From: Alphaproteobacteria bacterium
GTDB lineage: Bacteria > Pseudomonadota > Alphaproteobacteria > Bin95
Length of the DNA: 64,000 bases
Assembly: GCA_964291285.2 (NCBI GenBank)
Contig: OZ219788.1
Span: 320,001 to 384,000 of the forward strand
Direction of reading: 5' to 3'
Every line of letters starts with the position of its first letter. Positions within the stretch are counted from its first letter, which is position 1. The translations under genes were made by a program, and so were the position numbers. The notes beneath the pieces were generated by a model, which worked only from the letters and a program-made list of their open reading frames with translations, did not search any database and was not told the DNA's origin. Shown one piece after another: positions 4,981 through 28,440 of the stretch.

Positions 4981-6289
4981 TCAGGCTTTGTGTTCGCGCC
5001 AGTTCGGCGGCAGCGCGATGCCGACGGCCTGGAAGACCTTTCCGACCTGGCCCTCGACATGGGTGCGGGTGGTGATGCGCTTGCCGTCCTTCTCGATGGT
5101 GGCCTCTTGCAGGCGGTCGAGATCGCGGATCAGGTCGTCCCATTCGACGTTGACGTTGGCGGCGGCGCAGCGGTCGGCCAGTTCCTTCTGGAGGACGAGC
5201 GCGAGGAAGGAGCAGAAGACGTGGCCGCGGATCGCGGCGTCGCAGGAGTGGTAGATCGGGCGGGTGCGCAACTGGGCCTTCGCCCGGCGGAACAGGTCTT
5301 CCACCGTGAGCAGCTCCCGGTAGCGGAGCACGGCATTGAGCGGCGTCATGCCGGCGTTGGTGCGCAGCACGAAGATGCCGTCGAAGCGGGCCTCCTCGGC
5401 GAGCTTGCCGGCGTCGATCTCGAACGCCTTGCCCGCGCCCGTGCGGCGCAGATAACGCCGGTAGGCGCTGTTGCCGATCAGCGCTTTCTCGCCGTCCGCA
5501 AGGCGGCGCTGGAGGCCGTCCACCACGGCCTGCCGGTCGGCGCGGTCCTTCTGTGCCTCCGCCTCGTTGCGGCACACGATGTAGCGCGCGCCGCCCACCG
5601 TGACTTCCTTCACGAACAGCTGCGTCTCGCCGCGCGGACGCTTGAGGAGCAGCGGCACAAAGGGCTTCGTGTCCTTCAGCACCACCTCGCGGACCACCTT
5701 CGTGCGCCGCTCGCGCGCGCCCAGGATGTAGTCCAGCCCCCGCTCTTCCAGCGCCGCTATCGTCGCCGCCGAGATCATCCCCCGGTCCGCCACCACGCAC
5801 ACACGACCGATCCCGAAGCGTGACCGAAGACGGTCCACGATCGGCAGCAGCACCCTGGTGTCGGCCGTGTTGCCCGGCAGCATCTCCGTGCACACAGGCC
5901 GGCCCTCGCCGTCCAGCACCACCGCCAGAACCATCTGGCGCAAGTCCGGGCGATGGTCCTTCGAGTAGCCGTGCGCGCCCAGCGTCTCGCCGCCCGCGCC
6001 GTGGAACGACAGCGTCGTGGTGTCCATGAACACCACAGACAGGTCGGTGAACAGGTCCCGCCTGTGCTCGAACAGACGCTCCTCGATCCCGTCCTTCACG
6101 CAGCGCGGCGCAAGCGCGCCTTCCGCCGGCGCCTCCAGCTCCTCCCCGAGCCAGGCCATCGCCCGATACAGCTGATGAAGCCGCAGCCCCTCGATCCCCT
6201 CGATCGCGTAGTCGGCCATCCACTTCTCGCACGACCGGTCCGAACCCGACACGAACAGACGGTGCAGAACGCTCACGAACACCGCGCGC
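4981..6289 (-). pseudogene. IS1634 transposase, 3' part
   Basis: VFMDTT, GYSKDHRPDLRQ, VVADRGM, YRELLTVEDLFR, IRGHVFCSFLAL; its N-terminus lies at 28104-28440. Confidence 0.9.
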
Positions 6290-6408
6290 CGCACCTGTCG
6301 GTTCTAACCTGTTGATACAGCGTCTGTTTTTCCTCGTGCAACAGCGGGTCAGGGGTGCAACTGCAACCGCAATGTGCCCCGCCTGCAAATGGATGCAGGA
6401 GGAAATCC

Positions 6409-7530
6409 ATGCCCATCGTACGCCTCAACGAGAGCCGGATCGAGGCCCTTGAATCCCGAAAGGCGCCATATGATGTCCGCGACGCAGAGCTGAAGGGCTT
6501 CGGCGTCCGCATCCTGCCTTCGGGCAGCAAACGCTATTTCATTCACAGCCAGCATCAGGGCCGGCGCCTCTGGAAGACCGTGGGCGACGCCGGCAGCATC
6601 GGCTTCGACGAAGCCCGCCGGCAGGCAACGGAACTGCTTGCCGCCATCCGGCGCGACGAACCCGCCGCGCTTCCCGAAGACAGGCTCTTCGAGGCCGTGG
6701 CGGAGGAAGTCTTCTCCCGCTACGGGCGGCACTGGAAGCCCGGAACCATGAAGGTCAACCGGGGCTATCTGCGCAGCACGATCCTTCCCCGGTTCGCCGG
6801 GATGAACATCGCCGACATCACGAAAGCCGACGTGCAGCGCTGGTTCGCGTCCCTTCATGCCACGCCGGTGGCGGCCGACCGGTCGGCGCCGATCCTGTCC
6901 GTCATCATGCGCCAGGCCGAACTCTACGGCTACCGCCCCGAGGGCAGCAATCCCTGCACCGGCATCCGCCGCTACCGGCGCAAGGGACGGGAGCGGTTTC
7001 TTTCGGCGACCGAGCTTCGCCGCCTCGCGCGCGTGCTCGGAGATCATGAAGACCGGCATTCGCGCTGCGTCGCATTCATCCGCCTGCTGCTGCTGACCGG
7101 CTGCCGCAAGAGCGAGATACTGACCCTGCAATGGTCCGACTGCCGCGAGGGGCGCCTGTTCCTGCGCGACGGCAAGACCGGGCCCCGGACCGTGTGGCTG
7201 TCCTCGCCCGCGCGCGCCGTCCTGGACGGGCTTGCCCGGCAGGGCAAATGGGTCTTTCCCTCGCCGCAGAGGCAGGGGCCGGTATCCGCAACCGTCTTCG
7301 AGACCTTCTGGTGGCGGGTCCGGGAGGAGGCGGGGATTGCCGATGTGCGCCTGCATGACCTTCGGCATACATATGCCAGCATCGCCATCATGGGGGGCGA
7401 GACCGTCACGGCGACGGCGCGGCTGCTCGGGCACAACGATGCGCAGACAACACTGAAATACGCTCATTTGTCCGACCGTTCGGTCCGGGAGGCCGCCGAC
7501 GCCCTCGGCTCCATCCTCGGGGAGAGCTGA
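6409..7530 (+). CDS. Tyrosine recombinase/integrase 1 with N-terminal arm-binding domain
   Basis: RBS AGGAGG; DAELKGFGVRI arm domain; catalytic R (TGCRKSE), K (KTG), HDLRH, LLGH, Y (KYAH). Confidence 0.93.
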   Translation: MPIVRLNESRIEALESRKAPYDVRDAELKGFGVRILPSGSKRYFIHSQHQGRRLWKTVGDAGSIGFDEARRQATELLAAIRRDEPAALPEDRLFEAVAEEVFSRYGRHWKPGTMKVNRGYLRSTILPRFAGMNIADITKADVQRWFASLHATPVAADRSAPILSVIMRQAELYGYRPEGSNPCTGIRRYRRKGRERFLSATELRRLARVLGDHEDRHSRCVAFIRLLLLTGCRKSEILTLQWSDCREGRLFLRDGKTGPRTVWLSSPARAVLDGLARQGKWVFPSPQRQGPVSATVFETFWWRVREEAGIADVRLHDLRHTYASIAIMGGETVTATARLLGHNDAQTTLKYAHLSDRSVREAADALGSILGES

Positions 7531-7533
7531 TCC

Positions 7534-8679
7534 ATGCCGAGGCGGAAAAGGCTCACCGACGCCGGCATCGCAAGGCTTCGGGCCGGGGCGCGCGAATATA
7601 CGGTCTGGGATACCGGGGTCGCCGGGCTCGGGGTCAGGGTTCGCCCCTCCGGCAGCCGGACGTTCATCTACCATCGCAAGACGGCCGACGGGTTGCGGAA
7701 GATGTCCTTCGGTCCGGCAGCGCTGCGCAAGGTCGCGGATGTGCGCCGCGCCTGCATGGAGGCCGCGACCGGGGCCGCCGACGCGGACGCAGCCTGTCGC
7801 GAAAGGGCGCCGCTGTTCGGGAATTTCGTGGCCGGTCAGTGGGAGGCGGATTGTTTCGAGCGCTGCAAGCCGTCCACGCAGAGGAACTTTGCCGGCATTC
7901 TGAGACGGCAGCTGCTTCCGGCCTTCGGCTCCCGGCGCCTCGACCGCATCACCCGCAGCATGGTGCTCCGCTGGTTCGAGGCTTGCAGCCGGACCGCGCC
8001 GGGGGCGGCCAACGCCGCCCTCGCCCTGCTGCGGCAGATCCTCAACCACGCCATCGCCTGCGGGTACATCGAAACCAACCCGGTGCGCGGCATCCGCCGC
8101 AATCCCGGCCGGAAGATGACGCGCTTCCTGTCCCGAGAGGAAATCACACGGCTTCACCGTGTCCTCGATCGGTATGCGCAAGGGACGGTCTCGCAGGCTC
8201 AGCAGGCCGACATCATCCGCCTGCTGCTGCTCACCGGCTGCCGCAAGGGTGAGATCGTGTATTTGCGCCGGGAGGAAGTGAAGGACGCCCGGCTCGAACT
8301 TGCAGACGCCAAGACGGGACCGAGAACGGTCCTGCTGAACGCGCCGGCACGGGAGATCGTCGCGCGCCGGATGCGGCAGGGAAACGGCCCCTGGGTCTTC
8401 CCCTCCGTCAGGGACCCGTCCCGGCCCCGATGCCGGGAGCTTCCCCTCTGGTATCGGGTTCGGCGCGAGGCCCGCATAGAGGACGTGCGCCTGCACGACC
8501 TTCGCCATACCGTCGCCAGCCAGGCGGCGATGAACGGCGTGCCGCTGCCGGTCGTCGCTCGCCTGCTCGGACACGGCAATGTGCGCATGACGATGCGCTA
8601 TGCCCATGTCGGAGACCGCGAGATCGAGGCGGCGGCGGAACGGGTCGGGCGGGCGATTGCAAACTTGATGGCGAAGTGA
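7534..8679 (+). CDS. Tyrosine recombinase/integrase 2
   Basis: WDTGVAGLGVRV arm domain; TGCRKGE, KTG, HDLRH, LLGH, RYAH. Confidence 0.93.
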   Translation: MPRRKRLTDAGIARLRAGAREYTVWDTGVAGLGVRVRPSGSRTFIYHRKTADGLRKMSFGPAALRKVADVRRACMEAATGAADADAACRERAPLFGNFVAGQWEADCFERCKPSTQRNFAGILRRQLLPAFGSRRLDRITRSMVLRWFEACSRTAPGAANAALALLRQILNHAIACGYIETNPVRGIRRNPGRKMTRFLSREEITRLHRVLDRYAQGTVSQAQQADIIRLLLLTGCRKGEIVYLRREEVKDARLELADAKTGPRTVLLNAPAREIVARRMRQGNGPWVFPSVRDPSRPRCRELPLWYRVRREARIEDVRLHDLRHTVASQAAMNGVPLPVVARLLGHGNVRMTMRYAHVGDREIEAAAERVGRAIANLMAK

Positions 8680-8759
8680 TCGAGCTTCGCCGATGGCATA
8701 CCGTTTCTCACGGCCCCGGAACACGCTCCCAGGCATGACGACACGGCACACGGCACACG

Positions 8760-11897
<3,138 letters not shown>

Positions 11898-11899
11898 CG

Positions 11900-12449
11900 G
11901 GAAGGGACAGTCAACTGGTTCATGACGCGACGGATCATCAGGTCTTTGTTGGCCGGTGCGCTCTCGGCAATCAACGGGGTGAGCCGGTCAGCACTCGGGG
12001 ATCAAGCCGGCGCGCGACGCACTCCTGCGCCAGATAGGGCAGGAAGAGGAGCGCAGATGCGTTTGTAGTCGTCGGTGACGGACGGCCCTTACCAATGAAG
12101 TAGAGCAGATGCACCACCTCCTCCTCACAGCTGCGGCAGAGCGGTTCGCCGGACATGGTCCGCTTGATGTTGCGACGATAGCGTCCAGGGCATCGCTGCG
12201 CTGGTTGCCGAAGAGCGGCGATGCCTCGCCTCTCGCTACGAGAACGCGTCTCGGGTCCTTGATGGCATGGGTTGCGCGGTCGGCGTCGAGTGCACCGACA
12301 GCCGGTTTCACGCCGGCCGGCCTTTCCATGCGGTTTTCGTCGTATTCCAGGAAAAGACGCCACATCTCGGTATTGGCCGAGCTGATGTCGGAAACAGCCG
12401 AGCCGGTATCGCCGGCCGGTTCAACCATATTCCGGATTATCTTCGTCAT
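11900..12449 (-). pseudogene. Degraded RhuM/Fic-Doc family gene
   Basis: Fragments in several frames: WRLFLEYDE, RGEASPLFGNQR, GEPL, HLLYFI, eroded HPF-DGNKR region. Confidence 0.6.
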
Positions 12450-13563
12450 CGCGCAGGACGCTCTCCAGTTGGGGGTTCAGCAGCTTCCATCGCTGACGTA
12501 CCCGCTCGAGATCACCCTTGAGGATGACCGGCACCCGGTCCTTATGGGCCTGAACCACGCGCTCGTAATCGGCCTGTTCCAGAACCGCCGCGACCGACTG
12601 CCATTGCCCGTCGATTTCGGTGCGGAACCTGATCGTCCCGTCCACATCTTCCTCTTTGCGTTCCAGGACACGAACGAAGCCATACAGAAGCACATCGGGC
12701 CTTGGCGCACGCTCTCGCAGGGAGCGCGCGGCCTCGCGCAGCAATACGGCATCCTTCGATCCGAACTGGGAAACCGACGGCGGCGTCTTCACCGGCCGCG
12801 TCCGTGCCCACGAGACGCTGATATCCAGCTTCGGGAACGGTTCGACGATTCTGGCAAGCGCCTCACAGAGATTGGCGCTCACCCCGCTGGATACTGCCTC
12901 TCCGAAGGCACCGCCATCGTCGGAACCCGCCCGCTCTGCCGCCCGACGTACCGCGGCCAGCGCCTCGACAAGCCGTTTCGTCATCCGGCGAAAGATCGGC
13001 GCGTTAAGGTCATCCGAAGCCTCATCCTCGAACAACATTAGCATGGGCGGCGGCATGGCCGGTGTCAGCAATGTCACCACAAAACTGCCCTGGTCCGTCT
13101 GCCCAAGCCGCATCTGCCGCAAAAGGTCCGCCGCGTCCCTGTTTGCACGAGCACGGTACACCGGCCGCGGGTCATGAAGCGAGCACGCCGCCGCCAGCAC
13201 CAGGTCGCTGGCGCCATCGATCAGGGTCACGCCGTCGTTCAGTCCCAGGCTGCCGTCGTCGCTCTCCGCCGCCCGGATGCGAATCGCATCGCGGTCCGCT
13301 GTCGTGAGCGCACGGTAAACGGTCAACGTGTCCTGGTCGGCTACCTGCGCGAAGGTCTCGATCAACGCCGCCACGGCACTTGCATAGTCCCCGAGGCGCG
13401 TCGTCAGCGGCACGACGATTTCCGGCAACGTGTCGCCGACATAGATGTCCGAATGCTCGCGATACGAGTCGCAGCGGCTCCAACCCGCGATGCGGGCGTA
13501 GGCGGACAGCGCCGCCGGTGAAATCGCCAGCAGCGCGTCGCGGTCTTGAATGCTGACTTGCAT
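12421..13563 (-). CDS. Hypothetical protein (380 aa), partner of the DUF4365-like gene
   Basis: Clean ORF overlapping the upstream gene's stop; GQTDQGSFVVTL motif; beta-rich C-terminus. Confidence 0.8.
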   Translation of the reverse strand: MQVSIQDRDALLAISPAALSAYARIAGWSRCDSYREHSDIYVGDTLPEIVVPLTTRLGDYASAVAALIETFAQVADQDTLTVYRALTTADRDAIRIRAAESDDGSLGLNDGVTLIDGASDLVLAAACSLHDPRPVYRARANRDAADLLRQMRLGQTDQGSFVVTLLTPAMPPPMLMLFEDEASDDLNAPIFRRMTKRLVEALAAVRRAAERAGSDDGGAFGEAVSSGVSANLCEALARIVEPFPKLDISVSWARTRPVKTPPSVSQFGSKDAVLLREAARSLRERAPRPDVLLYGFVRVLERKEEDVDGTIRFRTEIDGQWQSVAAVLEQADYERVVQAHKDRVPVILKGDLERVRQRWKLLNPQLESVLRDDEDNPEYG

Positions 13564-14063
13564 CAGAGTTCTCCCGTCCTGGATTGCTCCATCAGCCTTT
13601 GCAGGGCCTCAACATCGAGTATGTTCCGCTCGGGGATATGAACGGTAACGGTCTTCTGACCGGCGACTTCATCATGGCCCCGTTGCAGGCTCAGCCAGTA
13701 GGCGCGACGCCGCAGGATGAGAGCCTCCTCGGTCACGGACAACCAGCGCGCTTCGTCTTCGGGAAGCTCCAGCACCACGAGCAGCCGAGGCGTCTGCGTC
13801 CCGGCACGTAGATCGTCGTAGTTCTTCAAGGACAGTCGAAACGGCAGGACGCCGTTTCTTGGCCCGCTGAGATCGGCAGTGGCCTTGAGTTGCAAGTCGA
13901 GGGCCGGGCGATATGTACCTCCCGCCTGAACCCGCAGGTCGACGCTGTCGCGGTCCGGCGCCGGCACAGAAGTCAGAAACCCTGCACGCGCCGCCAGCGC
14001 CTTGACATAGACCAGGGACAGCCCCTCCTTCCTGTCAGGAGAGGTGAGCAGGCCGCCAGTCAT
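13563..14063 (-). CDS. DUF4365-like PD-(D/E)xK fold protein
   Basis: D-D-SVD...LDLQLKAT, NYDDLR, PRLLVVL, AYWLSL motifs. Confidence 0.75.
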   Translation of the reverse strand: MTGGLLTSPDRKEGLSLVYVKALAARAGFLTSVPAPDRDSVDLRVQAGGTYRPALDLQLKATADLSGPRNGVLPFRLSLKNYDDLRAGTQTPRLLVVLELPEDEARWLSVTEEALILRRRAYWLSLQRGHDEVAGQKTVTVHIPERNILDVEALQRLMEQSRTGEL

Positions 14064-15679
14064 GCAATCTCTCCGACAATCTGTTCAGCATCCCGAAGTC
14101 GGACTTCGCCGGACATCAGTTTGGGAAGCAGCCCGTGTAGAATGCCGACGAGAGAATGACTTTGCCGGGAAGCCGCACTTGCTCGAGCGATAGGCGGACG
14201 AACCAGATTTCCGAACGCGACGGCGACTTGCTCTGTCGGGCACGCAAGTGGGAATTTTTGCAAGGCTTGGGCCTGCACCCGCTGGCGACCGCTTGTACCG
14301 GTCATGTTCTGAATGGCAAATTCGCGGAAACGAAAACTTCGGGCGAGACAATATGCGAATTCATACGGAAGCGGAGACTTGGGGCGCAAGACAATGTACT
14401 CTGTGGATCCCCAACCTACCTCGCCTTCCTGCAAGAAATCGACATAGGCCGTCTTTCCGTTCTCTAGGCATGGCGTGATACGAGCCATAAGTGTATCGCC
14501 GTTCATGAACTTTGTCCCCGAGCCAAAGGGACGAGCAGAGATGGTATCAGGTATATGTCCCTTGGCTGGCATGTTCGCCATATCGAGGTACGGAGCGGTT
14601 TGCCCCTTGGGCAAACGCCGCAGGGGATTGACTGAGATCAGATCGTCGAGCGGGCTCACTTCCCACCCCTCCGGTATCTCGCCGATTTCGGAATTGGCGA
14701 AGCGGTCGGGAAACAGTTTCCATATTTCGGGAGGCAGATAGGGCGCACGCCCTTCCATCTTCGCCCGGACCGGCCCGAAATCGACGAACCAGTCCTTGAA
14801 GATCGCCCGCGCCATCGCCTCCAGCGTCCCGTTCATGCGCCGGTTCAACGCGATCTTGTCGTCCAGCGCGCCGAGGATGCCCGCAATCGCCCGCTGCTCG
14901 GGAAGGGGTGGTAAATCGATGTTCAGATTCTTGATATCCGAGGGCCTTATTGACGGATAAGCCGAAGTACTGTGTTCGGCAATGGTATGAAGCTGGTTGA
15001 TAATTCGTTCCTGAACAAGAAACCAATAGATGAAACCAGTGTCAGCAATGTCTTCACGCGCACGAAACACCGCAAAGCCAGTAGATGCGAGAAAATTCTC
15101 TGGAACATCCCGTAGCAACCCGAAGTGCCTCTGATTGGGCCGGACGGTTGAGAATACGATGTCGCCCGGTTCAATTTTGCGACGCGCACGGTCAGGCAGC
15201 TTGTCTTTGTTCAGCTTCAGGCATTGAATCCTCTCTATTCGGTTATCTGTGATGCTGCCTGTATCAAGGTAATTGACAAATGGCCAATCTTCCTTCGGGG
15301 AATATGTTGCTTCATTCATTACGGTGCATTCGCCAAGTCGTATCCTGTGCCAATGATTGGCAGGAACTAGCGGTTTGGCCAGTACCACATGGTCTCGCTC
15401 AATTTGCTTCCGGAAGGAGCCCGGCACGTCATCCCAGACGAACAGGTCCACCCGGAATGGGAGACTGCTTTCCTCCAACGCTTCCCGGAGGTCGGAAACG
15501 GCGCGCTTCTGTTCGGGCGTCGCGAACACCACCATATCGATGTCGGATTGGGGGCGAGAGGTCCAACTGACCCGGGAACCGTAAGCCCAAGCCTTGGTGT
15601 CCGGGAGATGGCGTTCGAGCAACGCCAGAATATCTTTGCGTTGCCCGGCGGTGATGTCGATGGAGAAGTTTATTCCCAT
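14060..15679 (-). CDS. hsdS: Type I R-M specificity subunit with N-terminal MNT nucleotidyltransferase domain
   Basis: aa 1-100: AYGSR-x-SDID and PFRVDL; then two low-GC TRDs separated by PPLPEQRAIAGILGALDDKI. Confidence 0.9.
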   Translation of the reverse strand: MGINFSIDITAGQRKDILALLERHLPDTKAWAYGSRVSWTSRPQSDIDMVVFATPEQKRAVSDLREALEESSLPFRVDLFVWDDVPGSFRKQIERDHVVLAKPLVPANHWHRIRLGECTVMNEATYSPKEDWPFVNYLDTGSITDNRIERIQCLKLNKDKLPDRARRKIEPGDIVFSTVRPNQRHFGLLRDVPENFLASTGFAVFRAREDIADTGFIYWFLVQERIINQLHTIAEHSTSAYPSIRPSDIKNLNIDLPPLPEQRAIAGILGALDDKIALNRRMNGTLEAMARAIFKDWFVDFGPVRAKMEGRAPYLPPEIWKLFPDRFANSEIGEIPEGWEVSPLDDLISVNPLRRLPKGQTAPYLDMANMPAKGHIPDTISARPFGSGTKFMNGDTLMARITPCLENGKTAYVDFLQEGEVGWGSTEYIVLRPKSPLPYEFAYCLARSFRFREFAIQNMTGTSGRQRVQAQALQKFPLACPTEQVAVAFGNLVRPPIARASAASRQSHSLVGILHGLLPKLMSGEVRLRDAEQIVGEIA

Positions 15680-16086: not shown

Positions 16087-16108
16087 GTACAGCCCTTCCG
16101 CACCGCTT

Positions 16109-16360: not shown

Positions 16361-17961
<1,601 letters not shown>

Positions 17962-18179: not shown

Positions 18180-21100
18180 TCATTGTGTGGCGATTCCGTA
18201 CAATTTTTGAAACCGGAGGTCGCCAGAAATTCCGCAATTCCCGGCGCACAGAGCGTCAAGCAATTTCTTGAGACCGGGCTTGTTATAGTCCGGCAGAACA
18301 TCGATTACCTTATTCAGCACCTTGAGCAATGGCTCCGGATGCTGTTTCGCGCAGCCATTCCTGTTGAGAACGAAGAAGCTATGCCCGACGCCGCCGCTGC
18401 CTTCCACGGGCCGCAAATATGTCAGCCACCATTCCGCCGCCTGAGGAAATGCATCGCCGCACTCCGCAAGCATCTTCAGTATCGCTTCCGAGATCTTCGC
18501 AGTATTGCGGCCCTGCTCTCGCGGCCAGTAGCTGCAAAGCCAGCGGTGCAATTTCTCGTCCCAGATCCGCTGCCGTTCGTCAGGTGTCCCGGTGAGGCGC
18601 CGCCTCAGGCTCCCAAGCACAGTCACCAGCCCTTGTTCGGGCATGGGGGCGACAACGTCGCGAATCTCTTTCTCAGTCAGATCTCCCGGCGCATCAAGGC
18701 AGACCGCCATGAACAGGTCTCTCAGTCGGCGCATTCTCCGGTCTTCAAGCCTGTCGTCGTGCAGGATTTCGAGAAACGGCGCCCTGATGGCTTTCAGGAG
18801 GTCCGGACCCAGACCTGGCGACCAGCTGTATGCAGACCATAGGTCGACAGCTTCCTGTGACTTCAGGCAGGCGAGGCGCGCGATCAGGTGCTGCCGGGTC
18901 CACTCAGCGTCGACCGCAAACAGCGGGCGCAATCTGGTCGCCAGAAGCACGCGGCCTGGATGCCCGAGCGGGTCTTCGGCCATGGCGTCGAAATACGGCC
19001 GGACCGGTGGAGGGAATCCCGCTCCGGCTGGCAGTTCGTATTTCGACAGCCGGGTCAATGCCGCTTCCGCCAGCTTTCCGGCCGGATGGTTCAAGGCGTT
19101 CGTCAGGGTTTCATTCTGGTCGGCCATCTCCGATTCGCCCTCGCCCTTTCCGACCCAGGATTTCATCCAAAGGACACCGAATTCAGCTTCCCGATCGGTT
19201 TCCCATGCGTCCGCAAGCTGTTTCACGAAGCCCGCGACGGCGGACGCTACCTCGCCGAACAGCTCGCCGGGAGCCTCGGCAAGGATTCTTGCCGCACAGG
19301 CGTGCAGTTCCGCCGGCCGCTTTGGTTCCGGCAGCTCCCAGAGGAAATCCCGCCAGTACCCTGCAGGCCATTTGCCCTGTTTTCCGAGCTGTCGCAGCGC
19401 GGAAAAAACCTCTGCCGGTTTCCGGGCAGCCAGCCCTCGCAGTCCGTCCTGAACGATTTCCCCGGTATCGAGCGCCACCACGATGTCTTCGACCGATCCC
19501 TTGAGGAGATGCTTGGGCGCATAATCTTCGATGCCGATTCGTTCATACTTTACCTCGCCAAAAAATTCATCGATCTCTCCCTCGATTTCCTCCATTTTCT
19601 GGGTTATTGTTTCAGCCATCGCTCTTGATTTCTTGTCCAGCTTTATCCCGGACATGCCCAGCATGTGCAGGAACAATGCCTGTTCTTTGCGCAACCCTTC
19701 GTCACTGCCGAAGGATTCCCGGATTTTATTCGATTTCGGTCCAGCGTGAATTGCGTCAATGATGTCGCTGCGGAGATCTCGGGGTAACCGCTTGCCCGCC
19801 AATCTCAGAAAACGCATCGTTTCGCGCCGCATATCGAAGTCCCAGAGACCGAGGTTTCGACCTCCCAGAAGCAATTTCTGGGCAAGCCGAATATCGGCTC
19901 TCGGGTTTTCGGTCAGCGCGTGCAGCGCCAGCCTCCCGAACAGCGGCTCTTCGGAGTCCGCCCAGCGAAGGAGAAGATTGTACGCGCGTCGGCTCTCGTC
20001 GGGAACCAGCGCAAGATAACTGTCCCGCGCCAGATCGATGAGGCGGGTCCAGTTGTCGAAATCGTTGTTTTGCTCGTGAGGCGCGATCGACGGCCGATAC
20101 AGGTACGACCGCTGGTAGACATTGCCATCGGCCTTACCCAGGGAAAGGGCGTGTTCGAGATGATCGGTCAGCGTCTCGGCGTGTCTCGAAAGCACTTCCC
20201 GGTCATCGAGAATAGCCTTGAATAGCGCCCAAACCCTGTCGCATGCCGACATCAATTCGAGATGTCCGCATGTATCGATGGGCTGCGGCGCTTGCGGGGT
20301 ATTCTCGTAATTCAGCCGTACTTGCCGGACCATGGAAAGACCCGGTCGGACGACGAGACGCGGCCGGATACTCTCCATGACCTTGTCCTCGATGAGCCTG
20401 CGTTCGTCGGGGGACATCGCGGCCCGATGACGGTCGGAAAGCCAGAGCCCGTTCCAGGGATCATCGGGCCTGCTGCCCAGAAGAACGGTCCAGAGCAGTC
20501 GCAGCCTGTCGGGAATGTCCGGAAGCGCGGAAGCCCGCTCAGTCAGACGGCTCTCGACCTGCTGGCGAAGAAGAGGGTGGAGATGAGCGCCGTTCCGAAG
20601 CGCCCAGGCCAGCAGTTGCGGCACATGCAGATGGTTGGCCAGCCAAACCGAGAGATGGTGCCTTGTCCTATCCAGATTGTAGGGATTCACCGATTCGAGA
20701 CCGGTATCTACGAGATGCCGGTCCGTCCCGTTAGCGGCAGAGCGCAGCAGACCCTTTTCCGCGAACATGTCGAGCCACTTCTCGAACTTTGCATGGTCCT
20801 CCTCGTTCGACATGGGAGGGGCTTCGGCAAGCGCCTGTGCGGCCGATGCGTCCTGTAGCGCCCAGACGACCCGTTCCACAACCGGCCCGGCCGGCATCTT
20901 GTTAATCTCGTCGATGGCGATCCGGGAACGGGCTCGAAGGGGATCGCTTCGGATCCGCGCCCATTCAATCAGTGTGTCTGCGAGAAGGCGGTGTCCGTCC
21001 CGCTCGTCATAGAGGATCGGTTCGACATTCTTCGCGACCCAGGCGTCACGCGCCCTGGATATCCCGGCTTCGGAACCATCCATGGCGGCGAATGCCCAAG

Positions 21101-21836
21101 CCATTCCGAAGCCCGCGCCCTTTGACCGCTCGGCGGCAAGGGCGTCGACCATGTACCCCATGACAGGATCGTCGAGGCTGTAGCCGACGAAGACGACCGA
21201 GAATTCGCGAAACAGTTCGGTGACGAACCTCGCCGCCCAGCGCTCGGTCAGATATGCGCGCCCGAAATCTGCCGCGGTCAGCACCAGGTTCGAGCCATCT
21301 TCCTTCGGTGCGATGCGGCCGTGCAGATGCACCAGGCTCGACCAGGCATGAGGCTTGGGTATCGGAAGCCGGGGCGCGGCATCGACCGTCAGGGATTCTT
21401 CCGCCGCTTCGGCAAAGCGGTTGTCGAAATTGGTGGTAACAAGTCGGACGCCGCTGTCGAAATTGGTGGTAACAGGTCGGACGCCGCGTTCAGTCCGCGA
21501 CAGCTTGAGCAATGCCTTGTGGAGTTTCAGGTCACCGCTTCGCGGTCGAGAAAGCCGGTCGATGACCGCACCCCGCAAGTGGTTCGCGCCCAGGCGGCGT
21601 TCCAGAAGCCCGAGCGCCCTGTCCCAGGCCCCGCTACATAGCGCTTGCCGTTCGGCGGGATCGGGTTCGATGTGGTTGGCATCATATACATGTTTCACGA
21701 GGGCTTTGAAGCTCGGCAGGTCAGACCCTTCTGCCATCGAGACCCCGGCGCCGCAGAAGAAAACGACATTGCCGTCGTCCAGCCCGTTCAGGAGGGGCGC
21801 CGGAATGTCCGGGCCGTCTTCAATCAGTTCAGGCAT
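18180..21836 (-). CDS. SIR2-domain anti-phage protein, Dsr1-like
   Basis: GPDIP...VVFFCGAGVS, TTNFD, HLHG, DFGRAYLTERWAARFV, FVGYSLDDP; long helical C-terminus. Confidence 0.85.
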   Translation of the reverse strand: MPELIEDGPDIPAPLLNGLDDGNVVFFCGAGVSMAEGSDLPSFKALVKHVYDANHIEPDPAERQALCSGAWDRALGLLERRLGANHLRGAVIDRLSRPRSGDLKLHKALLKLSRTERGVRPVTTNFDSGVRLVTTNFDNRFAEAAEESLTVDAAPRLPIPKPHAWSSLVHLHGRIAPKEDGSNLVLTAADFGRAYLTERWAARFVTELFREFSVVFVGYSLDDPVMGYMVDALAAERSKGAGFGMAWAFAAMDGSEAGISRARDAWVAKNVEPILYDERDGHRLLADTLIEWARIRSDPLRARSRIAIDEINKMPAGPVVERVVWALQDASAAQALAEAPPMSNEEDHAKFEKWLDMFAEKGLLRSAANGTDRHLVDTGLESVNPYNLDRTRHHLSVWLANHLHVPQLLAWALRNGAHLHPLLRQQVESRLTERASALPDIPDRLRLLWTVLLGSRPDDPWNGLWLSDRHRAAMSPDERRLIEDKVMESIRPRLVVRPGLSMVRQVRLNYENTPQAPQPIDTCGHLELMSACDRVWALFKAILDDREVLSRHAETLTDHLEHALSLGKADGNVYQRSYLYRPSIAPHEQNNDFDNWTRLIDLARDSYLALVPDESRRAYNLLLRWADSEEPLFGRLALHALTENPRADIRLAQKLLLGGRNLGLWDFDMRRETMRFLRLAGKRLPRDLRSDIIDAIHAGPKSNKIRESFGSDEGLRKEQALFLHMLGMSGIKLDKKSRAMAETITQKMEEIEGEIDEFFGEVKYERIGIEDYAPKHLLKGSVEDIVVALDTGEIVQDGLRGLAARKPAEVFSALRQLGKQGKWPAGYWRDFLWELPEPKRPAELHACAARILAEAPGELFGEVASAVAGFVKQLADAWETDREAEFGVLWMKSWVGKGEGESEMADQNETLTNALNHPAGKLAEAALTRLSKYELPAGAGFPPPVRPYFDAMAEDPLGHPGRVLLATRLRPLFAVDAEWTRQHLIARLACLKSQEAVDLWSAYSWSPGLGPDLLKAIRAPFLEILHDDRLEDRRMRRLRDLFMAVCLDAPGDLTEKEIRDVVAPMPEQGLVTVLGSLRRRLTGTPDERQRIWDEKLHRWLCSYWPREQGRNTAKISEAILKMLAECGDAFPQAAEWWLTYLRPVEGSGGVGHSFFVLNRNGCAKQHPEPLLKVLNKVIDVLPDYNKPGLKKLLDALCAGNCGISGDLRFQKLYGIATQ
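21422..21487. repeat. 33-bp in-frame tandem duplication inside the SIR2 domain
   Basis: TGTCGAAATTGGTGGTAACA(A/G)GTCGGACGCCGC twice. Confidence 0.95.
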
Positions 21837-21929: not shown

Positions 21930-21961
21930 TGCACTGCTAAACTCGTGCACTGCTAAACTCG
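21930..21961. repeat. 16-bp tandem repeat x2
   Basis: TGCACTGCTAAACTCG twice, between the divergent sirtuin and relaxase genes. Confidence 0.9.
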
Positions 21962-22260
21962 TGAACCCGTGCACCCGAAGCGTCTTTAACCTTCATAGCC
22001 CGATTCGCAATCCGCTTGCTGATCCTGTCGGGAGCGCCGCACAGCCCGGGCCCGGCATAGGCGCCAGCAGCGAACAGGCGGCGCAGCCAGAGAGGATGAA
22101 TGGCGCATGGATTTCAGCACGGGCGTCGCGACGTCGTTTCCCTAAATACCCGTGCCGAGCCTCGGCCTTGAGCCTTTCCGGCAGCTGGCACGGCGGTCAC
22201 GGCTTCGGCGGCCTCTGGACGGTTGACACGCCGCCGTCCGCGATGGGGTAAGCTCCGCCG

Positions 22261-25200
22261 ATGGTGGCGACGGTCTTCAACCTGACCTCGGCTTCCTCGA
22301 CGGTGCACTATTTCCGGCGCGAGGGGCACGGGCTCGGGCCGAACCTGCCGGCGAACGACGACGAGGCGGGCGACTACTACGCGCGCAAGGATGACGAGCA
22401 CCGCAAGGCGAGCCGGTGGCGGGGCAGCGGGGCGGCGGCGCTGGGGCTGACGGGCCATGTCGAGCCGGTGGAGTTCCGGCGTGTGCTGCAGGGATACGTT
22501 CCCGGCACGGACATCCGGCTGGGGCGGCTGCGCGACGGCGAACACGAGCACCGCCCGGGTGTGGACATCACGTTTTCGGCGCCGAAGTCGGTGTCGCTCG
22601 AGGCGCTGCTCGGCGGTGCGGGTTCGGCCAGGGCGATGCGGGCGCACGATGCGGCGGTGCGGGCGACGCTGGACTACATCGAGACACGGCTCTTGCGAAC
22701 CCGGCGCTGGAGCCGCGAGGAGCGGCGCTCGGTGCAGGTGAATGCGCCCATGCTGGTGGCGGCGACCTTCCGGCATATCACGAGCCGCAACAACGACCCG
22801 CAGCTTCACACCCATTGCGTGGTCGCGAACATGACGCGCGACGGCGGGCAGTGGCGGAGTGCGGAGACCGGTCTGCTGCGCCGGTCGGAGAAGCTGGTCG
22901 GGGCCTTCTACCGCAACGAGCTGGCGCACCGTCTGCGCCGTGAGGGTTTCGCGCTGCGTCCGTCGATGATCGGGCGGGTTCCGGGGTTCGAGATCTCGGG
23001 CTGGCCGCGTGCGGTGCTGGAGGCGTTCTCGAGCCGGCGGCAACAGATACTGGCCTACATCCGGGAGAAGGGCTGGCGCTACGATGCGCACACCGCGCAG
23101 GCGGCGACGCTGGCGACGCGGGCGCGCAAGAACGAGCCGCGCCGGGCGGAGCTTGAGGCGCTGTGGCGGGCGTTTGCCGAGGAAAATGGCCTCGCCAGGC
23201 GGACGCTGCGGAAGATCGGGGTGCGGCATGCGGCGCCGCCGACGGCGCTGGAGATCGCCTGGCGGGCTCTTGAGCAGCTGGAGGAGCGGGCGAGCGTCTT
23301 CCCGGCGCGGGACGCGCTGGCGCTGGCGCTGGCGCTGGCGCATTCGCCCGGCCTCTACCGGCTTGAGGAGATCGAGGGGGCCTTTGCGGAGCTTCGACGG
23401 GACAAGCATTTGCTGCCGGCGATCCGGCGCGGGGCGGGCGAGGCCTGGACGACGGCGCGGGCGGTCAACGCCGAACGCGAGGTGCGCGAGCGCACGATCG
23501 CCAATATCGGTGCTGTCAGGGCGCTCTCCGAAGCTCCCGTCCCCGGAGAGGCGCTGGAGGGCCTGACCGGGGGCCAGCGCGAGGCGGTGCGGCTGATCCT
23601 GGAGAGCCGGGACCGGGCGGTCGGGGTGCAGGGCCATGCGGGCACCGGCAAGACGGTGATGCTGCGCCGGGCCGTGTCGTGCATGGGAGAAAGGCGGGTG
23701 CTGGGACTGGCGCCGTCGGCCTCGGCGGCGCGGACGCTGTCGCGCGAAACGGGCCTCGCCTGCCGGACGCTGCAATGGTTCCTGACGCGCTGCCAGGAGG
23801 TGTCCGACGGGGTGGCGGACGCAAGGACGCTCGCCGCGCTGAGAGAGCGCCATGGCGGCGCGGTGGTGGTGGTGGTGGACGAGATGTCGCTGGCGGGCAC
23901 GGCGCAGGCGCGCGCGCTGCTGCGGATTGCCGAGCGCCTCGACATTGCCCGGCTTGTGCTTGTGGGCGACAGCCGGCAGCTGCGGGGCGTGCAGGCGGGC
24001 CAGCCCTTCCGGCAGATGCAGCAGGCGGGCTTGGGCGTCGCGGAGATGGACGAGGTTCGCCGGCAGCAGGACCCGGACCTGCTGGCCGCCGTCCAGGACA
24101 TGATCGAGGGCGAGCCGGGCGCGGCGCTGGAGCGTCTCGGAGGCAACCTGCGGGAACTGCCGGCGGAGGAGATCGCGGGCATGGCGGCCGCGCTCTGGCT
24201 GCGGCTTTCGCCCGGGGCGCGGGCGGGTACGGCGTTGCTGGTTCCGACGCGCGCGCTCAGGGCCGAGGTCGAGGAGGCGGTGCGCGAAGGCCTCGAAGCC
24301 GAGGGCGCCCTGCACGGGTCCTCCATCGGGATCGAGACGCTCGTGCCCCTCAACCTCACGCGCGCGGAGACGGGGTCGTGCGGCTGATACCGAGCTTCTC
24401 CCACGGCCCCTCAACCTCACGCGCGCGGAGACGGGCGACGTGCGCAACTGGCGCGAGGGCGACATCGCGCTCTTCAACCGCGAGCGGAAGAACTACCGCA
24501 TCCGCAAGGACGACGCCTGCACGGTGATGGAGGTGGAGGAGGACCGGGTGATCCTCGCCCATCCCGATGGCCGGCCGCGCCACCTGAAGCCCGGCGGCGA
24601 CCTGCGCTACCGGCTGGACCTGTTCGAGGCGAAGACGCTGCGGATCAGGGAGGGCGAGCAACTGCGCTGGACGCGCAACGACAGGGAGCGCGGCCTCGTC
24701 AACGGCGACCGTGTGGAGGTGGCCGCCATGGGAACCGGAGCGCTCCGCATGCGCCTCTCCGACGGGCGGGAGATGCGATTCGCGCGCGACGACCCGCAGC
24801 TTCGTCATCTTGCATACGCCTATGCGTCCACCGTGCATGCGGCGCAGGGGCAGACGCACGACCGTGTGGTCGCGGTGCTGGACACAGGCGCGGGGCCGCT
24901 GGTGAACCAGCAGACGCTCTACGTGCAGCTCAGCCGCGCGCGGGAAGAGGCGCTGGTGCTGACCGACAACCGCGAGCAGCTTGTGGAGACGCTGGAGGCG
25001 AACACGGGCGAGCGGCTGACGGCGCTGGAAGCCATCGGCGAGACGGAGACGATGAAGGCGCCGGCGAAGCGGACGGTCTCCGGGGAGGCGGCGTCTGCGT
25101 TCCTTGACGGCCTGCGCGCGGAGCGGGAGCGCCGCGCCGAAGCGGAGGCGGCCTTGCGCCGGCTGGCGGAGGCCGAAGCAGCGCTTGCCGCAGCCCGCGC

Positions 25201-26569
25201 CCATGCGCAGGAAGCCGGATACACCTTCGCCGCCCTGCCGGCGGTCGATCCGGACGACGGACAGACCCTTCAGGACCGTCTCGCGGCGGCCAAAATTGTG
25301 CAGGAAGCGGCGCATGATGTCTCGGCTGCCGCCCATGCGGTGCTGGAGGCGGCGAAGGCGGCGGACCGCGTCCCGCCGCTCGACGATGCCGCGATGGAGG
25401 CGGCGAAGACCGGCGAAACCGAGGCAGCGGCGCGCCTTGTGGCATACCGGTCGCTGGAGACGGCCTTGACGGCGGCGAACAGGGCGTCCGGACGGCTGGC
25501 GCCCGCAGGCGCGCTCCGCGACAAGGATATCGACGGGGCTTCGATGCAGCGCCATGGCGCCGCCGCCCGGGAGGCGGCCGCCGCCTTCGACGCCCTCGCG
25601 CAAAAGGCGCGGGCAGCGGGCGAGGCGGCGCTGGCCCGGCGCGCGCGGGAGAGGGCTTCGGACCTCGGGCTGGCGGCGCTGCACTGGAGCTACAGGCTGG
25701 CGGGCCACCGGTTCGCGGTGGCGCGGCTGGCCGAGCGGGACATGGCGCCGCCGCACACGGTCGGGGACGTGCGGCGCTGGCAGGACCTGCGCCAGCGCCA
25801 GGCGGACGCGCGGACCGGGGCGGCAGCCGCGGCCGAGGCGGTCGCGCCGGAGAGCGCGGACGCGGCGGCCCGGTGGCGTGAACAGGCGGCGGACTACCGC
25901 AAGCAGGCCGGCGCGATACGCGGCTCGCTGGCGGAACTGGAGGGGCTGAAGACGCTGGTGCGGACCGCGGAAGCCGCGTCGGACGACGCGGCGGCATGGA
26001 GCGCGGCGGCGGGCGCGGCGGAGACGATCCGGAAAGGCTCCGGCCGGGGTCTGGAGGACGAGGCCGCGCGCGTGCGTGACGAGGAGGCGCGCCGCCGACA
26101 GGAAGGGCGCGAGGCGGCGCGGGCACGTTTCGAGACCCTGAGCTCGGAATGGGACGCGTTCGAGAGGAAGGTCAGGGCCGGGGGGCGGGTCGGCTTTGCG
26201 GACAAGCGCAGCCGGCAATATGTCGACCGCGCGCGGCGGCTGGAGGCGGACCCCGATCTCGATGCGGAAGCGAAGGAGACGCTCGCGGCGTTCCTGCACG
26301 AGCACGATGTCGTGCGCCCGAAGGTCGTCCGGCGCTGCCGGGAGCTGTTCGCGCAGTGGAACGCGGTCCGCGCAACGGCAAGGGCCCGCGGCGTCGGCCG
26401 GTTCATCCCTCCGGAGAGCGCGGAGGTCGTTGCGGGGATGCGCAAGCTCGCCGCCGGGAGCCCGGAGCACCTGACGCGCAGACAGAAGGAGACATTCGAG
26501 ACGATCACCGAGGAATACGCCCTCCATGTCGAGCGGCAGCGGACATGGGTGATGACCATGAGGCCGTGA
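22261..26569 (+). pseudogene. MOBF (TrwC/TraI-like) relaxase-helicase, frameshifted by a 61-bp insertion
   Basis: DYY, DITFSAPKSVS, H-TSR-DPQLHTH, GHAGTGKT, DE, TVHAAQG, YVQLSRAR; removing 61 bp gives a single 1415-aa ORF. Confidence 0.9.
24345..24435. repeat. 30-bp direct repeat flanking a 31-bp foreign segment
   Basis: GCCCCTCAACCTCACGCGCGCGGAGACGGG at 24345-24374 and 24406-24435. Confidence 0.95.
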
Positions 26570-26920
26570 GCGAGCGGGCCGGACCCCGGCGGCGGGCGCT
26601 GTTGTCCTCATCGGTCGGACAGCAGGGCGACGGGACGACTGCAACCATGGCCGAAGACCCTGGCAGAAGACGGGGAACGCGTCAGCTTCCGGGAACGCCG
26701 CCTGCCCGCGACGCGAGAGCCGCATGTCCGGCGCTGCAACGGCCATGCAATTCAGGCCCGGAAGCCACATGATCCACCATGCAATCCGGCAATATGTGAC
26801 ACAGTGAATATTGTATAGCCATTCCCGATTCAACAATGAAAACAGAATGTTGATGCCATGACTGAACTATATAATATATCCACAACATCCGTAATGAAGG
26901 CCATATGACCTCCTGTCCGG

Positions 26921-27466
26921 TCATCCTGCGCCGCCCGCTTTCCCGCCACCGGCCCGCATCGCCGCCCGGCGGGCGATGTCGGCAGCGCGCTCCGGGCCGG
27001 TGACCGGCGCCAGCAACGCTTCCATCCCGTCCCTTCGGCCCTCGCGCGCCATTTCGTCGAGGCGCGCCTCGAACAGCAGCGCGACGGTCTCGCGAAGCCC
27101 GGCGGGCGCATCGCCGGAAAGGCCCGACAGCACCGCCGCCGCGCCTCGCACGGCCTTCCTTCCGCTGCCGGAACCGAAGCTCGCTGGCAAGGAATGCGAG
27201 CGCCTCGGCCATCGTCACCCCGCTGCCGGGCAGGGGGCCGGCAAGCCCGTCGCCGAGGGACGCAAGCTGGACCGCGCTGTCGTGCAGGGCGGCTGCTCGT
27301 CGCCCGTCAGCGCCATCCGGCAGTCCTCGCCCAGCACCTCCCTCAGGATGAAGGACGAGGTCTTCATCCCCGCTTCCTCCGCCAGCACCCGGATCGCCCA
27401 CCAGTCCGACTGCGGGCAGGTGATGCAATACTGCCGTGCGCCGCTTACGTCAGCCCTCCCGCCCAT
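26921..27466 (-). pseudogene. Degraded/frameshifted ribbon-helix-helix accessory gene(s)
   Basis: QYCITCPQSDWWAIRVLAEEAGMKTSSFIL RHH-like start; continuation appears in other frames. Confidence 0.5.
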
Positions 27467-27827
27467 CGTCGGCCACAGACGCCTCGGCTTCCTCCACCAG
27501 CCGCCGCCAGACACCGCCCCGGCCCTCGTCCTCGAAGCGCATGCGCTCCGCCAGAACGAGAAGGCGCAGGTCCACCAGCGCGCGGCGCCTCACCGCCAGG
27601 GAGAAGTCTTCCGCGATCTCCGCCGCCAGCTCCTCAGGCGCGAGCCCGCGCGAGATCAGGAAGTCCGAGGCCGACATGTCCGCCCTGCCGGCGCGGCTGC
27701 GGACCAGGCGCCAGTCGCTGTCGGTCGCCATCACCGAGCGCGGTCTCTTCCTGCCGTCATCCGCCGCCATCACACCTCTCCGGCCCCGGGACACAGGCAT
27801 GACCCGTGCCTTTTTACCGTGAACCAC
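27450..27827 (-). CDS. Ribbon-helix-helix protein (MobC/TrwA-like relaxosome accessory)
   Basis: RSVMATDSDWRLVRSRAGRADMSASDFL pattern; the true start is probably downstream (MAADDGRK). Confidence 0.6.
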   Translation of the reverse strand: MVHGKKARVMPVSRGRRGVMAADDGRKRPRSVMATDSDWRLVRSRAGRADMSASDFLISRGLAPEELAAEIAEDFSLAVRRRALVDLRLLVLAERMRFEDEGRGGVWRRLVEEAEASVADDGREG

Positions 27828-28103
27828 AGGAACGATACATCAATGTTGTATCCATGTTCATACGGTATGACCTTCTCCTGTCCATTCCTTGCCTTGCTTT
27901 CAGACAGGCACAGGCTCAAGTCCCTACAAAATTCCCAATCCGTTACCGAAGTGCCTCACTCTTCCAAATCTCCTACAAGAATGATCATGACACAAGGTGC
28001 TTGCATCTACCTCCATGATCTCCTATCATGAGCCACCTTGCGAGGAAGTCAGTGCTTCGGTCAACAGGGTGTTCCTATAGCCAAGAATTCGACTATCTTT
28101 GGC

Positions 28104-28440
28104 ACACCGCGCGCTCCACCGCGAACCCGAAGCCGCGACCGTCCAGAAGCTCCTTCACGACAGCGCCCACGCCCAGCCGATCCCACAGCCGACCGAACAG
28201 CAGCGGACCGCCGACCCGCACGCAGGCCAGCGCGCCCGCCTCCATGTCCTCCAGCACCACGGACCGCTCCGAATGGCGCGCCAGGGACGCGATCAGACGG
28301 TCCAGCTCCCCGCTCGCCTGCAACACGTCCTTGCGGCCGAGCGCGCGGATCGTGCGCTGGCGCACCCGCTTGCCCTCGCGCACGCTCTCCACGAGGTAGA
28401 GATAGCGGTGGCCCCGGGCGGTCGTTTGGCGCACGAACAT
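28104..28440 (-). pseudogene. IS1634 transposase, 5' part
   Basis: MFVRQ...YLYLVESVREGKRVRQRTIRALGR; joins the 3' part as FAVERAV|FVSVLHRL (544 aa in total). Confidence 0.92.

Follow-up and report, generated by a model that had tools for sequence, protein, structure and literature searches.

Mobile elements that rely on more than one tyrosine recombinase form a small, recently recognised group whose mechanisms are unsolved. A 2023 table of tyrosine-recombinase transposon groups comprises integrative and conjugative or integrative and mobilizable elements (ICE/IME), SE, GInt, RIT and Tn554-related elements (PMC10214605), and the GMT islands are a later addition to such groups (bioRxiv 10.1101/2023.03.28.534373). 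Here we describe a genomic island that shares some features with each of them. It lies in a stretch of 64,000 nucleotides (hereafter the window; G000:C4:320001-384000, contig OZ219788.1) of an alphaproteobacterial genome of 6.1 Mb and 68% G+C in five contigs (C1-C5), where it occupies positions 6290-28103; coordinates without a contig name are those of the window. Two adjacent tyrosine integrase genes, encoding Int1 and Int2, stand at its left end, and 41 such pairs are found in this genome. We consider it probable that the island is an integrative element mobilised by two arm-type (P4-like) integrases, which are encoded by a co-evolving tandem gene pair and act jointly on a carried core.

In lifestyle the family formed by these pairs is closest to Tn554 and SE, and in enzyme type to the P4-like integrases of IMEs. 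As outlined in PMC10214605, Tn554 (TnpA, TnpB, TnpC, each of which is required) likewise has two tyrosine recombinases, spreads in a transposon-like manner and shows six junction bases resembling a carried footprint. However, the island has no TnpC-like third gene, the next gene being hsdR on the other strand; instead of an ordinary enzyme and a large one (TnpA and TnpB) it has only two genes for proteins of ~375 aa, both with an arm domain; and the family is found in Proteobacteria. SE (IntA-Tfp-IntB-Srap), GInt (GinABCD) and RIT (RitABC) also carry cargo behind a module of several tyrosine recombinases at one end and insert at selected targets. Their modules are described as having three or four core genes, some without catalytic residues, together with terminal inverted repeats (PMC10214605), whereas the present family has only two genes, both catalytic. 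The three tandem tyrosine recombinases of RIT contrast with two genes in 41 out of 41 pairs, and the four core genes of GInt and SE, which according to PMC10214605 include a non-catalytic recombinase-fold protein and a small accessory protein, have no equivalent here. GMT islands are rich in defence genes, have two recombinase genes at their 5' border and are mobile via a circle (bioRxiv 10.1101/2023.03.28.534373). They are defined by tandem GmtY, GmtZ and GmtX; Int2 scores 21.5 bits against a GmtZ cut-off of 600, Int1 matches no Gmt model at E <=0.01, a GmtX-like third gene is lacking, and the related pair on the Photobacterium plasmid pPHDD1 matches no Gmt model. Judged by predicted gene content, the pair module has the defining gene set of none of SE, GInt, RIT, Tn554 and GMT. 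This agrees with a preliminary description of the stretch, made from its letters, which had set it apart from RIT, GInt and Tn554, and extends the difference to SE and GMT.

Two further systems offer guidance of another kind. XerC and XerD at dif are paralogous recombinases encoded by separate genes that act on an asymmetric core, and they serve as our working model for Int1 and Int2. They differ in lacking arm domains and in being chromosomal housekeeping enzymes, and Int1 and Int2 reach 47.7-59 bits against cut-offs of 330-335 for the NCBIfam XerC/XerD equivalogs. Integrases of the CTnDOT, NBU1 and Tn916 type select targets by a short motif beside a mismatch-tolerant crossover segment that carries coupling sequences, much as proposed below, although each of these elements uses a single integrase.

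The comparison with IMEs deserves most care, as the preliminary description had placed the island in an under-described two-integrase IME family. Like an IME, the island has an arm-type integrase at one end, a relaxase and ribbon-helix-helix (RHH) genes, no type IV secretion system (T4SS), defence cargo and short terminal direct repeats. It brings its own integrase module, has defined ends and an empty site, and holds neither a T4SS nor a coupling protein; its MOBF relaxase is present but split by a 61-bp insertion, and no origin of transfer (oriT) was identified in the island. Unlike IMEs, which have one integrase, it has two co-evolving ones, and the family has no tRNA or housekeeping target but uses many sites alike only in the motif ACACC (no tRNA gene lies in window 1-40000). 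The relaxed targeting suggested earlier holds good. Nor is the relaxase a family feature: an 8.2-kb member has none, and with the island's own copy broken the designation as an IME family cannot be kept. Full-text literature searches brought up no description of tandem arm-type integrase pairs; most subscription journals and the supplements lay outside their scope, so an earlier description is possible. The family is apparently large and undescribed.

The island is a discrete insert of 21,814 bp plus one extra copy of an 11-mer. This 11-mer, ACACCGCGCGC, has exactly two copies in the window, at 6279-6289 and 28104-28114 (+ strand), and the preliminary description had rightly taken them as the boundaries. 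On its own such a repeat is no proof of insertion; with one mismatch permitted, the pattern has 9 matches in the window against 7.7 expected and is not rarer than chance. The empty site is the proof. Insertion is demonstrated because the flanks are the two halves of one insertion sequence (IS) whose other copies hold the 11-mer once. The host IS is ~1.9 kb long, belongs to the IS1634 family and has ~15 other genomic copies, each with a single 11-mer. Its left portion (4877-6289, minus strand), with the C-terminal 437 aa of the transposase (ORF, or open reading frame, 4981-6294), recurs at full length (1408-1414 bp) and 99.6-99.9% identity at 14 other genomic places and partially at two more. 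Its right portion (28104-28618, minus strand), with the N-terminal part of the transposase, matches 12 genomic places over 510-518 bp at 98.6-99%. In intact copies the stretches that match the left and the right flank have exactly the 11-mer in common, as at C5:365611-367023 and C5:367013-367527. That the interrupted gene encodes a transposase, as had been thought, is confirmed by NCBIfam transpos_IS1634 (343 bits against a cut-off of 100) and by Pfam DDE_Tnp_1.

Empty sites were also read for two relatives. One of them, 36.3 kb long (C1:412420-448755), interrupts a different IS with at least 25 copies, and the four empty copies read hold a single ACACCCCTGAA. The 8.2-kb member mentioned above (C3:1616819-1625006, hereafter E1) lies in a chromosomal gene region conserved in the genus, and all five congeneric loci that were read have an uninterrupted site with one 11-mer. 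IS copies thus account for two of the three verified sites. The preliminary description had considered IS-directed targeting; given the position of E1 and the short target motif described below, targeting is not IS-directed. The IS as such is not what is sought, and IS sites are probably used since insertions there are harmless in an IS-rich genome.

The two integrases of the island, 3 bp apart on the plus strand, are both full length, as first noted. Int1 (6409-7530, 373 aa) belongs to an ORF open from 6355, with GGAGG ahead of the ATG at 6409; Int2 (7534-8679) has 381 aa. They are 38% identical, and both match Pfam Phage_integrase (E 1.4e-20 for Int1 and 1.2e-19 for Int2) and have SAM-like central domains. 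A residue check verified that the R-K-HxxR-H-Y catalytic set is complete in each. The further claim of an arm-binding domain in each stands directly for Int1, the only one to match Pfam Arm-DNA-bind_3 (34.7 bits against a cut-off of 27), and for Int2 only by homology. A profile-profile alignment, with a family of 27 sequences on each side, pairs residues 1-371 with 1-376 at 100% probability, the N-terminus included. Because this alignment spans both proteins end to end, the N-terminus of Int2 is the same arm domain in diverged form, which gives Int2 the architecture of Int1 (arm, SAM-like and catalytic domains). Both proteins can then be classed as P4-like arm-domain integrases, Int1 via Pfam and Int2 via whole-length homology.

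A tblastn search with both proteins found, besides the 41 tandem pairs, 5 partial solo genes in this genome. The pairs form four groups: a (the island and four relatives), b (~22 pairs), c (11 near-identical modules) and d (4 pairs). Groups a-c make up 37 out of the 41, and in each of these pairs the upstream gene resembles Int1 more closely and the downstream gene Int2; the 4 pairs of group d are ambiguous between the two types. Within the genus, 15 out of 16 other genomes have Int2 homologues (E 1e-30 or better), and single genomes reach as many as 44 matches. A sample of 300 other genomes from the class contained 4 with a homologue at E 1e-70 or better among the best six candidates per genome. 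At 26 out of 29 loci from other genomes an Int1-type gene stands directly upstream of an Int2-type gene, the three exceptions being truncated or single. In a plasmid collection, 22 records match Int2, all at <40% identity, and the seven inspected all proved to be pairs: Paracoccus pTAV1, Photobacterium pPHDD1, the Shewanella oneidensis MR-1 megaplasmid, Aliivibrio pAWOD920, Novosphingobium pP6W1, Sphingobium 2pYBL2-2 and a Polymorphobacter plasmid. Their two genes overlap by 4 bp in six cases and by 40 bp in pPHDD1, and they are annotated merely as 'site-specific integrase'.

The phylogeny of the two genes follows the same division. In a careful tree of 27 sequences (14 upstream and 13 downstream genes, midpoint root), all but one of the 14 upstream genes group together on one side, and 12 out of 13 downstream genes form one clade (95/94) opposite, beside the group d pair. 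The order of subclades is parallel on both sides (sphingomonads, a gammaproteobacterial trio, and groups a and b of this genome), and for groups a and b a larger quick tree gives the same picture. Across Alpha- and Gammaproteobacteria, 26 out of the 27 sequences have the whole catalytic set. Because gene order is fixed, the taxa are distant and the clades are mirror images, the comparisons show the pair to be an old, co-diverging two-gene module rather than an accretion. The two-integrase family that the preliminary description had suspected is in this respect well founded.

When the homologous pairs were compared at their borders, relatives were found to have common ends, and most left borders to carry ACACC. 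Of 27 left ends, 22 have the motif within 14 nt upstream; counted by distinct outer flanks these are 18 out of 23, while at random positions the figure is 0.7%. The other five left ends carry ACACG, ACACA (twice), AGACC or CACTC. It is present at 8 out of 9 left ends in other genomes. The 17 right ends, which are of two sequence types, are directly followed by ACACC in 15 cases and by ACACG or ACGCC in the other two. The 11-mer of the island can thus be read as the target motif ACACC plus a putative 6-nt crossover or coupling segment. In eight left/right pairs the two 11-mers agree at 11/11 positions in three (this island, C1:412420-448755 and C3:123444-145042), at 10/11 in three and at 8/11 in one, and show no agreement in one chimera; beyond these eight, two further left/right pairs have a common GCGCC segment. 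The chimera (C2:218497-224592, 6.1 kb) has the left end and integrases of group b, a group a right end and unrelated flanking 11-mers, with an inverted further Int2 gene adjoining it; it is probably a recombinant or two partial elements. For two other left ends, candidate 11-mer recurrences lie 45 kb and 116 kb downstream; they are without right-end features and were set aside as chance.

The imperfect matches are informative about how the repeat arises. The left junction of E1 equals the empty-site sequence of 2 out of 5 relatives, whereas its right junction has one base changed. A single 11-mer mismatch is present both in E1 and in a sister that is 99.8% identical and occupies another site, and these mismatches more probably come from recombination itself, because two later mutations within 44 bases are unlikely at 0.2% divergence. 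Such imperfect recurrence fits a carried crossover core better than a target duplication made by staggered cuts. The six bases of closely related elements lie one or two steps apart (AGCGAG, AGAGAG, CGAGAG, CGGGAG, GGTGAG), which is what overwriting of the carried copy at each move would produce. In all seven distant pairs from plasmids ACACC, mostly as ACACC-C(C/G/T)A(C/T)GC when read by eye, stands 50-250 nt upstream of the first integrase. On pPHDD1 (NC_014653.1) the 12-mer TGACACCCCACG at 6729-6740 recurs 9.2 kb downstream at 15932-15943 and delimits a putative 9.2-kb element (6729-15943) that encodes, besides the integrase pair, a replication-initiation protein, an N6 methylase and PAAR/polymorphic toxins.

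Inside the 11-mers, the ends of the island are also conserved. The left terminus, CGCACCTGTCGGTTCTAA (6290-6307, +), belongs to a pattern CGCACC(T/G)G..GGTGCTAA seen at 27 elements in this genome and 9 loci in other genomes; in most relatives it holds the palindrome GCACC-N4-GGTGC, the island copy reading GGTTC. The right terminus (28069-28103, +) ends in TTTGGC and is common to two other right ends in the genome. Next to the termini the preliminary description had seen a subterminal inverted repeat, which is present as 8 bp, CCTGTTGA at 6308-6315 and TCAACAGG at 28061-28068; this match alone is not significant, since an inverted match of at least 8 bases between the ends appeared in 512 out of 2000 shuffles (26%). 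It gains weight because it has a second, similarly spaced arm and because the repeat of relatives covaries. The second arm, TTCCTCG at 6330-6336 and CGAGGAA at 28041-28047, follows a spacer of N14 on the left and N13 on the right, which makes a bipartite repeat of 6308-6336 and 28041-28068 (both +). At the same places group b has its own version, which is likewise self-complementary: ACTATCTGAC ... TTCTCCC at the left end and, at the right end, ACTATCTGAC ... TTCCTCCC in inverse orientation. This covariation is better evidence for a subterminal repeat than the 8-bp match. Between the left arm and Int1, the direct repeats GTGCAAC, TGCAAC and CTGCAA (6336-6388, +) are candidate arm-type or operator sites.

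The eleven modules of group c, 96-99.9% identical, all lie behind ACACCCGACGC or a one-base variant (C1:52121, C1:792226, C2:380364, C3:141066, C3:1423806, C3:1511349, C4:237325, C4:464975(-), C5:259806(-), C5:300718 and C5:419501(-)). We dropped the idea that they are minimal two-gene elements of 2.6-2.9 kb: the short shared piece is the integrase module only, and a conserved 1.7-kb right-end segment, which ends in that 11-mer, is found at a distance of 11-33 kb. In five cases the 11-mer and the initial 14 nt of a left end come directly after this right end, an arrangement that is attP-like or a tandem remnant.

The boundaries, the empty site, the conserved ordered pair, the ACACC-N6 motif and its imperfect recurrence at the right end can be brought together in one model. 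A circular form would carry one core, in the order right end - ACACC - N6 - CGCACC... left end, and would undergo conservative site-specific recombination with ACACC-N6 targets. Int1 and Int2 would act together on this core in the fashion of XerC/XerD, one binding the ACACC arm common to all partner sites and the other the element-borne CGCACC arm, each exchanging one strand pair across the 6-nt segment. Two specialised enzymes would fit because the core is asymmetric, with ACACC at all four sites and CGCACC-N4-GGTGC in the element only. An asymmetric core would suit one enzyme per half-site at least as well as one enzyme per end, the division of labour first imagined. Recombination would require ACACC and near-identity of the six bases, with one mismatch tolerated, and the last target may overwrite the carried six bases, so that specificity would drift and the element would behave like a transposon. 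It is tempting to go further and see here a widespread, unnamed superfamily of tyrosine-recombinase transposons in Alpha- and Gammaproteobacteria, working as an obligate heteromer with a 5-bp ACACC arm and choosing targets whose adjacent 6 bases are nearly identical to a carried copy rewritten at each hop, so that specificity is heritable but drifting. This broader idea is speculative, and we doubt it somewhat more than we believe it.

Several observations weigh against the reading of the island as an element moved by a jointly acting pair. At the level of the enzymes, Pfam finds no arm domain in Int2 even at E 10, and a predicted Int1-Int2 complex scored 0.52 (best control 0.01), a result graded as weak support. 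The mark for a pass was reached by 58 out of 80 solved complexes and 2 out of 110 mismatched pairs, and among passing scores <=0.60 are only 7 of the 80 solved complexes plus both mismatches that passed. In the prediction runs at least 70% of contacts agree and the pLDDT of the partners is at least 77; the pass may reflect likeness to solved tyrosine-recombinase assemblies. The data are compatible with a heteromeric complex and equally with two enzymes that have separate tasks. In the proposed core, the half-sites ACACC and GCACC are directly rather than inversely oriented, which is unusual for a tyrosine recombinase. In the midpoint-rooted tree the central branch has a support of 88/94 and is not starred, the group d genes are sisters outside the upstream/downstream split, and one Paracoccus downstream gene has a G aligned at the second Arg. 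As for movement, an attP-type junction (right end - ACACC - N5-7 - left end) was found neither in this genome nor in 17 genomes of the genus, no excisionase or recombination directionality factor (RDF) was identified among the island ORFs, and the relaxase is interrupted. The four matching public sequencing runs, none of them listed as RNA, exist as contigs only and cannot show excision; in contigs of three of them (X1-X3), loose ends at position 6289 continue into the IS, and these say nothing on excision because intact IS copies explain them.

These points bear differently on the alternatives to joint action of Int1 and Int2. One integrase may be the recombinase and the other a diverged accessory paralogue with an architectural, RDF-like or regulatory role, or the two may divide integration and excision between them. 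An identity of 38% leaves room for different jobs, the heteromer prediction is weak, and no separate Xis/RDF gene is seen among the island ORFs. However, a purely architectural role would not require the full catalytic set kept in 26 out of 27 sequences, and the arm, core-binding and catalytic layout is retained in both proteins; we regard this alternative as unlikely. Replicative copy-out/copy-in movement, as proposed for SE, Tn554-type elements and GMT, could also take the place of conservative excision and integration. It would account for the many copies per genome (41 pairs here, up to 44 matches in relatives), and a left junction equal to the six bases of the target with a slightly different right junction resembles the 6-bp footprint described for SE and Tn554 (PMC10214605); replicative transfer has been reported for GMT islands (bioRxiv 10.1101/2023.03.28.534373). 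Heteroduplex resolution after conservative recombination would nevertheless yield the same junction pattern, and the gene set is unlike those of SE, Tn554 and GMT in having no Tfp/Srap, TnpC or GmtX, so that we hold replicative movement to be fairly unlikely.

Whether the pair is a unit, and whether it is alive, raises two other possibilities. Tandem accretion of site-specific elements is common, and nested and chimeric elements do occur in this genome, so integrases of two separate elements might have come to lie at one site by accident. This is contradicted by pair counts and tree: 41 pairs have spacings of 3 bp or otherwise short and keep their gene order, the same architecture and mirror phylogeny recur in distant taxa, and the island has a single pair of ends, all of which makes accidental pairing extremely improbable. 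Alternatively, the island might be a dead relic whose ends and genes look intact but which no longer moves. A broken relaxase, a circle junction absent from the genome and from 17 genomes of the genus, and a region that is a nest of IS copies would be in keeping with that. On the other side, both integrase ORFs are intact and the two 11-mers identical, 99.8% identical sister elements occupy different sites, and the insertion is recent because the host IS halves are 98.6-99.9% identical to other copies; we consider a relic quite improbable. A mobile element with a jointly acting integrase pair remains our preferred reading.

A family of this kind would be useful in several ways. It has only two genes, both for catalytic arm-type integrases, and a clear short target motif, and dozens of natural insertions in one genome make its rules readable from sequence. 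It also lends itself to studying the question of why certain elements require two tyrosine recombinases. The family moves defence genes (restriction-modification (R-M), Dsr1, PDC-M02) and other cargo (Slam/porin; DRT3 adjoining the Novosphingobium pair), and recognition of the pair would better the annotation of islands in hosts that include Shewanella, Photobacterium, Aliivibrio, Paracoccus and sphingomonad plasmids. If a heteromer with six rewritten bases is indeed at work, it would be a natural, partly sequence-guided means of integrating 8-40-kb cargo.

The cargo of the island is of defence type, as had been recognised, with matches in Pfam, NCBIfam and PADLOC. A type I R-M system, in which PDC-M02 and MNT/HEPN pairs are embedded, is joined by a Dsr1-like sirtuin, all on the minus strand. 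hsdR (8760-11897) encodes the restriction subunit (Pfam HSDR_N, SWI2_SNF2 and T1RH-like_C; PADLOC REase_I, 1064 bits). It is followed by a 153-aa ORF with a partial PDC-S23 match (11988-12449; PADLOC E 2.5e-11, profile positions 153-234 of 331), by a candidate defence protein of 380 aa, PDC-M02B (12421-13563; PADLOC 383 bits over full length, no Pfam match), and by a PDC-M02A/DUF4365 protein (13563-14063; Pfam and PADLOC). The 539-aa ORF at 14060-15679 matches an MNT-type nucleotidyltransferase (aa 21-100) and then HsdS (aa 107-537) in Pfam and PADLOC, and is either a fusion or two genes without a stop between them. An HEPN-type NTase_sub_bind protein (15670-16158; Pfam) would be the MNT partner, and the type I methyltransferase gene hsdM (16357-17961; Pfam and PADLOC) completes the set. 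The sirtuin (18180-21836, 1218 aa) matches Pfam SIR2_2, PADLOC Dsr1 (562.8 bits) and, over its full length, NCBIfam Dsr1 (682.7 bits); we call it Dsr1-like because this is below the Dsr1 equivalog cut-off of 1400. We do not count the ORF at 21961-22251 as a gene, since it matches no family and its translation is of low complexity. Between the sirtuin gene and the relaxase, a stretch of 125 bp (22011-22136) has ~20 other genomic matches at 79% identity and looks like a small dispersed repeat, perhaps of the miniature inverted-repeat transposable element (MITE) kind.

Transfer genes occupy the far end. With a MOBF relaxase and RHH genes and no T4SS, the island appears to have been built for mobilisation. 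The relaxase noted in the preliminary description is present (NCBIfam MobF/TrwC, 259.9 bits against a cut-off of 100). It is split into an N-terminal ORF (22261-24387, +; TrwC relaxase and part of the AAA_30 helicase) and a C-terminal ORF (24440-26569, +; UvrD_C_2 helicase end and tail), both assigned by Pfam and NCBIfam. The cause is a frameshifting insertion of 61 bp in the helicase part (24345-24405, +), recognised by alignment with a copy on contig C1 that is 96-98% identical and lacks it. The insertion is made up of 29-30 duplicated bp and ~32 bp of other sequence and resembles the footprint of another mobile element. In contigs of the public runs X2 and X3, 24344 joins 24406 without the 61 bp, which may stem from the sister copy on C1. 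Conjugative mobilisation of the island copy is probably impaired because the relaxase is interrupted. The RHH genes proposed earlier exist as two overlapping minus-strand ORFs with an RHH pattern (27450-27827 and 27215-27514), possible relaxosome accessory proteins whose NikA-like matches are below threshold (E 0.019 and 0.11, respectively). Family searches found no T4SS or coupling protein among the island ORFs, in agreement with the first account; genes for type IV coupling proteins lie at 6 other places in the genome, outside the island. PF03135 (VirB4) has no match in the genome, other VirB4 families not having been searched, and a promoter and terminator scan of 26400-28200 returned nothing. 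The degenerate sister of the island at C1:814196-836430 has a truncated Int1, an Int2 that is 95% identical, and a relaxase region that is 94-98% identical but rearranged, one part being inverted.

Cargo differs among members of the family. On Novosphingobium pP6W1 the pair is followed by a HEPN-nucleotidyltransferase gene and DRT3 antiviral reverse transcriptases, which suggests that defence cargo recurs in distant members. E1, in contrast (C3:1616700-1625200 with its flanks), has neither defence nor transfer genes; in their place it encodes a Slam-type protein for the assembly of surface lipoproteins, an unknown protein of 596 aa and a porin. The host genus, in which the family is abundant, is uncultured and apparently sponge-associated, a habitat that is only a hint: a sponge metagenome is one of the four sequencing runs that match, with a small share of words. 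Around the island, the neighbours of the interrupted IS are repeats as well, that on the left (4000-4881) having three further copies and that on the right (28781-29400) ~14.

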